In this document: positions 8,905-11,900 of the stretch, in pieces
Numbering within the stretch: the first letter of the stretch is position 1
Layout of the letters: each line of letters begins with the position of its first letter
NCBI RefSeq assembly: GCF_006345805.1
Contig: NC_043015.1
Coordinates: 43,896,001-43,960,000, forward strand
Reading direction: 5' to 3'
Origin: Octopus sinensis
Lineage: Eukaryota
Length of the DNA: 64,000 bases
Made by a program: the position numbers and the translations under genes
The notes under the pieces: generated by a model
Databases searched by the model: none
What the model was told of the DNA's origin: nothing
What the model saw: only the letters and a program-made list of their open reading frames with translations

Positions 8905-11900
8905 ATATCACAATCAAGGAACGGCCATAATAGGCCATTCACCCACTAGAAATAACAGCCAAAAAGCTTCAACCGCAAAATAACATTAATTCCGTAAACC
9001 AGGAGAAAATTAAAAAACATTTACCCTGAAATTCCTTATACGATGCACCGTTTATTCTACTGTTTAATGGTAAACTAACCTGATTAAATTAAATCAAGCC
9101 AATCTACCATAGGCCCTTAGATTCATCAGTAAGGAATAGCCAAATCGAAACAGATATTTTTCACGAGGCATTCTCGTCCATGCCTCGCCAATATCTGGAC
9201 CTAAAATTTTCAAATCGTCGCACTCGCGCCAAATTTATCGGCAGCAAATAATATAAGCCGCCGATTCCATTACGGAACCAACCAGAAAATTCATAATTAA
9301 TCAATATAGACAGGAGGCAAAAAAATTTTGTAGAATTCTTTTGCCCCCAGCGGCCTAGTGGGAAAAAATTAAATAGTCATAAACCATTTTTAAGTTCAAT
9401 ATCACAATCAAGGAACGGCCATAATAGGCCATTCACCACTAGAAATAACAGCCAAAAAGCTTCAACCGCAAAATAACATTATTCCGTAAACCAGAGAGAA
9501 AATTAAAAAACATTTACCCTGAAATTCCTTATACGATGCACCGTTTCTTCTACTGTTTAATGGTAAACTACCTGATAAATTAATCAAGCCAATCTACCAT
9601 AGGCCCTTAGATTCATCAGTAAGGAATAGCCAAATCGGAACAGATATTTTTCACGAGGCATTCTCGTCCATGCCTCGCCAATATCTGACCTAAAATTTTT
9701 TCAATCGTCGCACTCGCGCCAAATTTATCGGCAGCAAATAAATATAAGCCGCCGATTCCATTACGGAACCAACCAGAAAATTCATAATTAATCAATATAG
9801 GGAGGCAAAAAATTTGTTAGAATTCTTTTGCCCCCAGCGGCCTAGTGGGAACAAATTATTAAATAGTCATAAACCATTTTTAAGTTCATATCACAATCAA
9901 GGAACGGCCAAATAGGCCATTCACCCACTAGAAATAACAGCCAAAAAGCTTCAACCGCAAAATAACATTAATTCCGTAAACCAGGAGAAAATTAAAAAAC
10001 ATTTACCCTGAAATTCCTTATACGATGCACCGTTTCTTCTAACTGTTAATGGTAAACTAACCTGATTAAATTAAATCAAGCCAATCTACCATAGGCCTTA
10101 GATTCATCAGTAAGAATAGCCAATCGGAACAGATATTTTTCACGAGGCATTCTCGTCCATGCCTCGCCAATATCTGACCTAAAATTTTCAAATCGTCGCA
10201 CTCGCGCAAAATTTAATTTTCTCCTGGTTTACGGAATTATGTTATTTTGGGTGAAAGCTTTTTGGCTGTTATTTCTAGTGGGTGAAGGGCCTATTATGGC
10301 CGTTCTTGATTGTGATATTGAACTTAAAAATGGTTTTTAGACTATTTAATTTTTTCCCACTAGGCCGCTGGGGGCAAAAGAATTCTACAAAATTTTTTTG
10401 CCTCCCTATATTGATTAATTATGACTTTTCTGGTTGGTTCCGTAATGAATCGGCGGCTTATATTTATTTGCTGCCGATAAATTGGCGCGAGTGCGACGAT
10501 TTGAAAATTTTAGGTCAGATATTGGCGAGGCATGGACGAGAATGCCTCGTGAAAAAAATATCTGTCCGATGGCTATTCCTTACTGATGAATCTAGGGCCT
10601 ATGGTAGATTGGCTTGATTTAATTTAATCAGGTTAGTTTACCATTAAACAGTAGAAGAAACGGTGCATCGTATAAGGAATTTCAGGGTAAATGTTTTTAT
10701 AATTTTCTCCTGGTTTACGAATTAATGTTATTGCGGTTGTTGTTAAGCTTTTTGGCTGTTATTTCTAGTGGGTGAATGGCCTATTATGGCCGTTCCTTGA
10801 TTGTGATATTGAACTTAAAAATGGTTTATGATATTTAATTTTTTCCCACTAGGCCGCTGGGGGCAAAGAACTTCTACAAAAATTTTTTTGCCTCCCTATA
10901 TTGATTAATTAGAATTTTCTGGTTGGTTCGTACTGGAATCGGCGGCTTATATTATTTGGCTGCCGATAAATTTGGGCGGCGAGTGCGACGATTTGAAAAT
11001 TTTAGGTCAGATATTGGCGAGGCATGGACGAGAATGCCTCGTGAAAAATATCTGTTCCGATTTGGCTATTCCTACTGATGAATCTAAGGGCCTATGGTAG
11101 ATTGGCTTGATTTAATTTAATCAGGTTAGTTTACCATTAACAGTAGAAGAAACGGTGCATCGTATAAGGAATTTCAGGGTAAATGTTTTTTAATTTTCTC
11201 CTGGTTACGAATTAATGTTATTTTGCGGTTGAAGCTTTTTGGCTGTTATTTCTAGTGGGTGAATGGCCTATTATGGCCGTTCCTTGATTGTGATATTGAA
11301 CTTAAAAATGGTTTATGACTATTTAATTTTTTTCCACTAGGCCGCGGGGCAAAAGAATTCTACAAAATTTTTTTGCCTCCCTATAATTGATTAATTATGA
11401 ATTTTCTGGTTGGTTCCGTAATGGAATCAGCGGCTTATATTATTTGCTGCCGATAAATTTGGCGCGAGTGCGGGACGATTTGAAAATTTTAGGTCAGATA
11501 TTGGCGAGGCATGGACGAGAATGCCTCGTGAAAAATATCTGTTCCGATTTGGCTATTCCTTACTGATGAATCTAAGGGCCTTGGTAGATTGGCTTGATTT
11601 AATTTAATCAGGTTGTTTTTACCATAAACAGTAGAAGAAACGGTGCATCGTATAAGGAATTTCAGGGTAAATGTTTTTTAATTTTCTCCTGGTTTACGGA
11701 ATTAATGTTATTTTGCGGTGGTTGAAGCTTTTGGCTGTATTTCTAGTGGGTGAATGGCCTATTATGGCCGTTCCTTGATTGTGATATTGAACTTAAAATG
11801 GTTTATGACTATTTAATTTTTTCCCAAGCCGCTGGGGGCAAAAGAATTCTACAAAATTTTTTTGCCTCCCTATATTGATTAATTATGAATTTTCTGGTTG

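Follow-up and report, generated by a model that had tools for sequence, protein, structure and literature searches.

An extended stem II is a known feature of the hammerhead of the plant satellite RNA sCYDV-RPV (sBYDV), a type III ribozyme in which a side loop of this stem base-pairs with loop I, and for which double-hammerhead cleavage was reportedly described by Song et al. in 1999. Pseudoknots connecting stems I and II have been predicted in approximately 40% of hammerhead representatives, encompassing all three types, and mutation and rescue demonstrated that such contacts confer faster cleavage (Perreault et al. 2011, PMC3088659). The HDV-like circRNAs of toad and termite, as described in the available text of a 2021 report (PMC7936874), carry hammerheads whose helix I has an additional hairpin and an internal loop, the latter pairing with loop 2. 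A palindromic helix III and cleavage as a dimer are known for animal type I hammerheads and for those of Penelope-like elements (PLEs; PMC4209133), and a loop 2 of about 30–35 nt is on record for two spike-moss PLE-X1 motifs (Craig et al. 2021 File S2, PMC8557442).

The window analyzed here is a stretch of 64,000 nucleotides of the Octopus sinensis genome, in which positions 10571–10680 (+ strand) represent a predicted type I hammerhead motif that is located in a non-coding repeat of ~490 bp. The motif opens with the tetranucleotide GGCU (GGCT in the DNA; 10571–10574), which lies directly 5′ of stem I and covaries with a loop across subfamilies, followed by the 5′ strand of stem I (10575–10582), forming 8 bp with the 3′ strand at 10673–10680, and by the catalytic core CUGAUGA (10583–10589), of which the N position alone varies in the subfamily representatives discussed below. 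The base of stem II (5′ strand 10590–10594, opposite 10652–10656) consists of an A.A mismatch at 10.1–11.1 and then 4 bp with 10652–10655, and leads into an internal loop with a 5′ strand of 6 nt (10595–10600, including the putative pseudoknot partner GGCC at 10596–10599) and an A-rich 3′ strand (10645–10651) that exhibits no pairing with the flank (duplex energies of -1.9 to +2.3 kcal/mol). Beyond this loop, stem II is extended by a 19-bp hairpin (10601–10644), in which 10601–10619 pairs with 10626–10644 around a 6-nt apical loop; exactly five of its pairs are G-U, as in the array-1 subfamily, and all five are mismatches on the opposite strand. The 3′ strand of stem II and the core GAAA (10652–10660) are followed by the stem III arm, a 12-nt near-palindrome (10660–10671) predicted to act as a double-hammerhead arm, and by the GUA triplet (10670–10672), with cleavage predicted after 10672, a position taken from the established hammerhead consensus, in which cleavage follows the triplet. 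The fold of the sense strand of this copy has a z-score of -5.3, as compared to -2.1 for the antisense strand, and none of 200 shuffled sequences folded as well as the sense strand.

The copies in the window contain many 1-nt indels, and several details of the earlier note, which had described a long G-U-rich stem II extension with a 7x7 internal loop, 58 nt inside stem II and a 19-bp helix, vary between copies. The 7x7 loop with 58 nt applies to seven of the ten array-1 copies, while the copy at 10571 itself, with one loop nucleotide missing, has a 6x7 loop and 57 nt inside stem II; similarly, the 19-bp helix is intact in six of the ten array-1 copies, whereas in array 2 its fifth pair is broken, which leaves 18 bp.

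Both arrays in the window are palindromic. Array 1 (8905–13833) is composed of two divergent arms of the ~490-bp unit with their junction near 10213, and contains ten hammerhead copies, i.e., three on the - strand and seven on the + strand, while array 2 (48679–50995) represents a second subfamily with the pairing GAGCU/GGCUU and four copies, two on each strand; both ends of both arrays lie on (TA)n. Tandem units that each possess a type I hammerhead are characteristic of non-LTR retrozymes, as is the lack of coding capacity: none of the 45 stop-to-stop frames of at least 120 aa in the 64-kb window overlaps array 1 or array 2. Elsewhere in the window (46593–47150, - strand), a fragment of a LINE-type reverse transcriptase frame was recognized by motif on inspection.

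Family counts were obtained as exact-pattern matches in an indel-rich assembly. The pattern of core, long stem II and 12-nt-type stem III matched 4,997 times genome-wide, as opposed to 30 times for the reversed control, and the divergent clade B returned 1,162 matches against none for its control. The expectation in the earlier note that standard searches would miss the family holds for Rfam, which gave no match in the whole 64-kb window at the gathering threshold and, at E-values up to 10, six matches in the region 10300–11400, with no hammerhead family among them. Thousands of non-coding mobile repeat copies in the O. sinensis genome thus carry this predicted motif undetected by the standard RNA-family library. 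A search for a short-stem-II version of the family returned 138 pattern matches versus 64 for the control, none of them recognizably this family among the 100 matches listed. In a separate, small family (L125–L134), the type I hammerheads have a short stem II preceded by an additional A, as is typical of PLE motifs. The family unit is also present in assembled contigs of sequencing runs that are only guessed to be RNA; the runs searched for expression or cleavage consist of assembled contigs, with RNA on record for one of the 21 listed, and six different runs were compared. In contigs of this kind RNA ends, strand and abundance are not visible, and circular RNA produces a joint identical to that of a tandem transcript.

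For the analysis of covariation, 21 indel-free subfamily representatives were chosen from arrays sampled across the genome, and of the subfamily tree, in which several rows have truncated upstream flanks, only the two well-supported clades, A and B, were used. The representatives present the blocks in type I order, with CUGANGA and GAAA and with stem I open, as in a hammerhead core. Stems I to III show pairing in 93% of 809 cells, as compared to 26–46% in slid controls, and ten pairs of the structural set show double-sided change, a number reached in six of 500 shuffles. In stem I, 98.6% of the cells are paired and four of seven counted pairs are changed on both sides. The A15.1–U16.1 pair is A-U in 21 of 21 representatives, and the cleavage triplet is GUA or GUC, both of which conform to the NUH rule. 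The closing pair G10.1–C11.1 is absent, this position being A-U in six and unpaired in ten of the 16 clade-A rows, while in clade B an A faces U, C or another A. According to the text of two reports, this pair is highly conserved yet not obligatory, with natural U.U cases (PMC3088659, PMC7229834); its loss here may slow the core, which would raise the value of a strong tertiary clamp. Overall, the substitution patterns show core, stems I–III and the long hairpin to be maintained, as predicted structures, on one strand only, through changes that are either compensatory or tolerated as G-U pairs. In stem II and in the pseudoknot, clade B is out of register in the sequence alignment, so that the covariation count understates both; the registers were read by eye and by script.

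Within the long hairpin, 93.7% of the cells of the representatives are paired, seven pairs toggle to or from G-U and two show double-sided change. In 12 of the 21 representatives the fifth pair is disrupted, mostly as A.A, giving 18 bp, and the hairpin length (18–19 bp) and the apical loop are kept in both clades. The G-U toggles derive from both A-U and G-C pairs, and in clade B1 the number of G-U pairs is only one to two. The comparative data thus indicate structural conservation of the hairpin on the ribozyme strand, but no conservation of its G-U richness; of the extension described in the earlier note, the 19-bp helix with five sense-only G-U pairs is present at this locus, and its G-U-rich character is specific to a subfamily. 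A-to-I editing was considered as a source of the G-U pairs and rejected, as A>G changes (23) were not in excess of T>C changes (22) on the sense strand of 99 monomers, although this is a weak test given the base composition (A 383, T 548), the per-base rate being slightly higher for A.

Long stem II arms are not confined to this family. A pattern with a stem II of 42–72 nt and a 4-nt stem III loop matched 11,116 times genome-wide, versus 263 times for the control; these matches, whose stem III loop is mostly palindromic, represent many unrelated repeat families (e.g., L135–L154 and L242–L261), of which the sampled copies mostly fold into irregular long arms. The pseudoknot was rejected as a general trait of long-stem-II families, as only four of 46 copies reach 4 bp, where 2.6 would be expected. 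Since unrelated long-stem-II families lack the flank pairing, the stem II extension appears to be a feature of the hammerhead repeats of this genome, and the pseudoknot to be special to the ~490-bp family.

The earlier note had proposed that the nucleotides 5′ of stem I pair with the internal loop, and in array 1 this pairing, GGCU/GGCC, is indeed available between the flank at 10571–10574 and the loop at 10596–10599. Failure of other subfamilies to form it had been set beforehand as a refuting check; the flank and the 5′ loop strand can pair over 4–5 bp, with different letters beside stem I, in all 21 representatives. At least 4 bp can form in 122 of 123 distinct copies, leaving out 37 loci that had been fetched as loop variants. 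The pairings comprise GGCU/GGCC in array 1 and related copies, GAGCU/GGCUU in array 2 (G-C to A-U), GGCCG/CGGCC and GGCUG/YGGCC in older clade-A types, and AGGUU/GACCU and AGGUU/AACCU in clade B (C-G to U-A). Two double-sided changes are thereby represented, in separate clades (bootstrap 99 and 100 in a tree built on flanking sequence), while the remaining changes either exchange G-U and Watson-Crick pairs or lengthen the helix. The array-2 change, which had been taken as a compensatory one (AGCU/GGCU), does keep the pairing and gains a fifth pair (G-U), but the flank differs by a 1-nt insertion rather than by a substitution. The GGCU loop is present in three of the four array-2 copies, and an assembly error can be dismissed as its source, as this loop change was seen in independent contigs of four out of four public runs, one of which also has the flank insertion at equal depth.

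The position of the pairing is constant, the pseudoknot strand adjoining stem I even as the latter varies from ~5 to 8 bp, and the flank as an extension of stem I or as a partner of the 3′ loop strand was rejected, since in 21 of 21 representatives the pseudoknot is stronger than either. Clade-A loop substitutions at two pseudoknot positions were found only 15 and 22 times genome-wide, mostly as single copies, a rarity that has no matched control at unpaired positions. The cognate flank-loop energy was matched by 64 of the 40,320 permutations of eight types, a fraction that is not a p-value since the types are related. Combined with clade-B loops, clade-A flanks fail to pair (-1.5 to +0.4 kcal/mol); the reverse combination, of clade-B flanks and clade-A loops, does pair, at -3.8 to -5.1 kcal/mol versus -3.9 to -4.6 for the cognate combinations. 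A single match of 4 bp can readily arise by chance, as flanks reach this length after shuffling in 3.2 of eight family copies on average, and the support for the pseudoknot hence lies in its fixed position and covariation rather than in the single copy. The double-sided events number only two, both tied to 1-nt indels, so that their homology is partly a matter of alignment; a plain sequence alignment presents no double-sided pseudoknot pair (two invariant, three one-sided). Furthermore, subfamilies differ by up to 3 nt in the distance from the strand to the core, and published hammerhead pseudoknots are described in the text of PMC3088659 as spacing-sensitive. A few insertions contain a broken loop in two copies (C25, C16, C26, C1665), and the pairing is thus not strictly needed for copying. 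Taken together, the flank-loop pairing is very likely real, and it would probably enhance the rate of cleavage.

Stem III bears on how cleavage would proceed. In the copy at 10571, its self-duplex has an energy of -17.5 kcal/mol versus -0.2 kcal/mol for the hairpin, and in four of four subfamilies tested the duplex ranges from -17.5 to -18.8 and the hairpin from -0.2 to -2.9 kcal/mol. Perfect stem III palindromes of different sequence are present in three other subfamilies, and the pairing probability of stem III is 0.02 in the array-1 monomer. As stem III is a covarying 12-nt palindrome, cleavage is likely to be dimeric. The monomers fold well as circles, five of five being stronger than both shuffled and antisense sequences.

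Insertion ends were mapped by counting (TA)n-joined ends alone. All 135 mapped ends fall into two clusters of the clade-A unit; counted from the cut site, 81 lie between +113 and +137 and the other 54 between +230 and +241, with the two sites at about +134 and +237. Tandem and inverted copies, two fixed ends and an AT-rich or (TA)n target are hallmarks of Penelope-like mobilization and are all seen here, although the tail of the present repeat measures ~100 nt rather than 30–40 nt. The two sites resemble the two internal reverse-transcription starts that a purified PLE protein has been shown to use, giving a two-start ‘tail’ (PMC11167929). ORFs of 774–781 aa that combine RT and GIY-YIG domains exist in the genome, and we infer a Penelope-like mobilizing partner for the unit. 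An autonomous element sharing the ~490-bp repeat was sought in 50 GIY-YIG loci (from 150 scored of 5,029 candidates), and no match better than E 0.03 was found. A long-stem hammerhead upstream of one PLE ORF was rejected as such a partner, as it turned out to be a palindromic repeat that is nested there, with (TA)n on either side.

Several further observations concern these elements. Distinct hammerhead repeat families share (TA)n sites, where they are joined to or nested in one another (L094:1790-2300, L040, L224:6286-7228), and in L094 the ~490-bp family is fused directly to an unrelated long-stem-II family without (TA)n between them, which may represent a template switch. Further hairpins within the unit, among them the ones that immediately precede the two fixed insertion ends, differ between clades in compensatory-looking ways (e.g., L002:2123-2614). 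A young PLE family (L226:1674-5374, L229) has two ORFs (479 aa, and 781 aa with RT plus GIY-YIG) and copies that are ~98–99% identical; scans of its 3′ repeat for a conventional hammerhead found none. A second PLE family (L224:2745-5069 on the - strand, L232) carries a hammerhead downstream of the ORF, with an 18-nt stem II and a U.U at its base.

The reading that we consider the probable one is that of a type I hammerhead whose stem II is prolonged, past an internal loop, by an 18–19 bp hairpin, and whose 4–5 nt flank would pair with that loop so as to place stems I and II side by side, with predicted self-cleavage after GUA, likely as a dimer. The flank-loop pseudoknot, for which covariation is observed, would stand in for the non-Watson-Crick loop contact that is otherwise usual, and the distal hairpin would form a peripheral cap directed away from the core. 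The stem III of a monomer would be too weak, so that two tandem copies would pair via the 12-nt palindrome, the flank, core and stem II being contributed by one copy and the cut strand by the next; the pseudoknot, residing wholly in the 5′ half, could pre-fold that half ahead of the arrival of the cut strand. Unit-length or circular RNA would then be copied by a Penelope-like RT-endonuclease into (TA)n from two fixed internal sites, which would give rise to palindromic arrays.

This reading has to be weighed against three others. It is conceivable, if rather unlikely, that the long hairpin is the selected part, as a binding site for the Penelope-like protein or as an RNA-protecting fold, and that the pseudoknot merely keeps the core working around it: the length of 18–19 bp and the apical loop are maintained in both clades, and unrelated families in this genome also have stem II arms of 43–65 nt. 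However, no sequence common to those families was recognized on inspection, the autonomous element examined has a stem II of only 18 nt, and the mapped insertion ends lie 130–240 nt from the cut site, beside other hairpins. The opposite role for the pseudoknot, that of a brake which locks the monomer or circle in an inactive state so that multimers alone cleave, is less probable still. The attenuating structure that Miller and Silver are said to have described in 1991 is a pseudoknot between loop I and a bulge of stem II. A hammerhead with a cleavage-attenuating alternative tertiary structure is cited as being on record in the text of PMC6155905, a circular template must stay uncut, and covariation cannot separate activation from inhibition. 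The pairing, though, sits ~5 bp up stem II and 5–8 bp up stem I, which is where activating contacts lie, mutant and rescue tests of stem I–II pseudoknots showed activation, as the text of PMC3088659 reports, and the weak stem III already accounts for the silence of the monomer.

The least probable of these readings, and one that we regard as quite unlikely, is that the flank-loop match is incidental, i.e., a short GC-rich complementarity inherited from one ancestor and followed by a few lucky changes, with the ribozyme being slow or helped by a protein and having no tertiary contact. It draws on the ~40% of shuffled flanks that give 4-bp matches, on the small number of independent events, on the 42 of 46 copies of other long-stem-II families that have spread without such a pairing, and on the anole PLE hammerhead, which cleaves only with its protein and is dispensable for insertion in vitro (PMC11167929). 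Against it stand the changes fixed in subfamilies, all of which keep the pairing, including the two double-sided ones and the extensions to 5 bp, the failure of clade-A flanks with clade-B loops at the energies given above, and the preference of the flank, in 21 of 21 representatives, for the 5′ loop strand over both the 3′ loop strand and the 3′ flank as its pairing partner.

The proposed hammerhead with an activating flank-loop contact may also be placed in a broader, tentative scenario that we consider doubtful at present, in which long-armed type I hammerheads constitute a large, library-missed class in this lineage (~16,000 motif matches, distributed over many unrelated families), the extension of stem II being a module selected for protein binding or dimer assembly, and in which the ~490-bp family alone added the internal-loop pseudoknot, turning a slow PLE-type ribozyme into a fast, dimer-gated one. 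If this were true, the subfamilies would offer a naturally occurring set of mutants and rescues. Rfam overlooks thousands of predicted hammerheads in this animal genome, so that models with short loops may lead to severe undercounting in some lineages. The G-C, A-U and U-A pair variants that occur naturally provide ready constructs for asking whether the contact speeds or gates cleavage, a question that bears on what hammerheads do for Penelope-like elements, and a 44-nt hairpin tolerated beyond the contact could serve as a natural aptamer insertion site.

With respect to the literature, no description was found of a contact from the internal loop of a long stem II to an open 5′ flank, although the figures of PMC3088659, the bioRxiv supplements, and the papers by Lunse et al. 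(PMC5785218), Song and Miller (PMC353766) and Miller and Silver (PMC328893) could hold a closer precedent. The accessible portions of PMC7761336, PMC13725137, PMC6765202, PMC3185516 and bioRxiv 10.1101/2021.04.23.441226 contain no closer match. The Hydra-clade motif that the text of PMC8557442 lists for an octopus is ruled out as the present one by its short loop, and the permuted hammerhead forms described in the text of PMC10085705 are likewise excluded, as the block order here is that of an ordinary type I hammerhead. The predicted ribozyme is best described, and with good support, as a structural variant of the type I hammerhead in a putatively PLE-mobilized retrozyme, in which the arrangement is new and the parts are known.

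These parts can be traced to several described systems. Like the metazoan non-LTR retrozymes, as presented in the text of PMC7229834 and bioRxiv 10.64898/2026.07.22.740005, the octopus repeat consists of tandem non-coding units with a type I hammerhead in thousands of copies, for which PLE mobilization has been proposed, and the mussel retrozyme motifs likewise lack the usual loop-loop nucleotides. In contrast to them, it possesses a long stem II, a predicted pseudoknot, a 12-nt palindromic stem III, palindromic arrays and two fixed ends in (TA)n; its ~490-bp unit exceeds the 220–390 bp of the coral, mussel and axolotl retrozymes. With the PLE hammerheads, in the account of PMC4209133, it shares type I topology, a palindromic helix III for dimer cleavage and a helix II longer than usual; those motifs, however, typically have a helix II of 6–8 bp, a G10.1–C11.1 pair and no recognized tertiary contact, as opposed to ~24 bp, a predicted internal-loop pseudoknot and no G-C closing pair in the octopus. 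A 4–6 bp pseudoknot as the stem I–II contact is common to the ribozymes of PMC3088659, although the partner there is a terminal loop or tail, and an internal loop with a 19-bp extension is not among the forms described in its text. The contact in sCYDV-RPV (sBYDV), which is reported in the text of PMC6155905 to attenuate cleavage, belongs to a plant satellite RNA rather than to an animal repeat. Finally, the ribozymes of PMC7936874, as described in the available text, share with the predicted octopus structure a short basal stem, an internal loop of 6–10 nt on which an additional hairpin sits as a cap, and a pseudoknot of Watson-Crick or wobble pairs that is formed by the 5′ strand of the loop (GCCR with YGGC) and links helices I and II. 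The two designs are mirror images: there, it is helix I of a type III ribozyme that holds the loop and a ~20-nt hairpin, and loop 2 serves as the partner, whereas in the octopus they are located in helix II of a type I ribozyme, with a 44-nt hairpin, and the predicted partner is the open 5′ flank of stem I.
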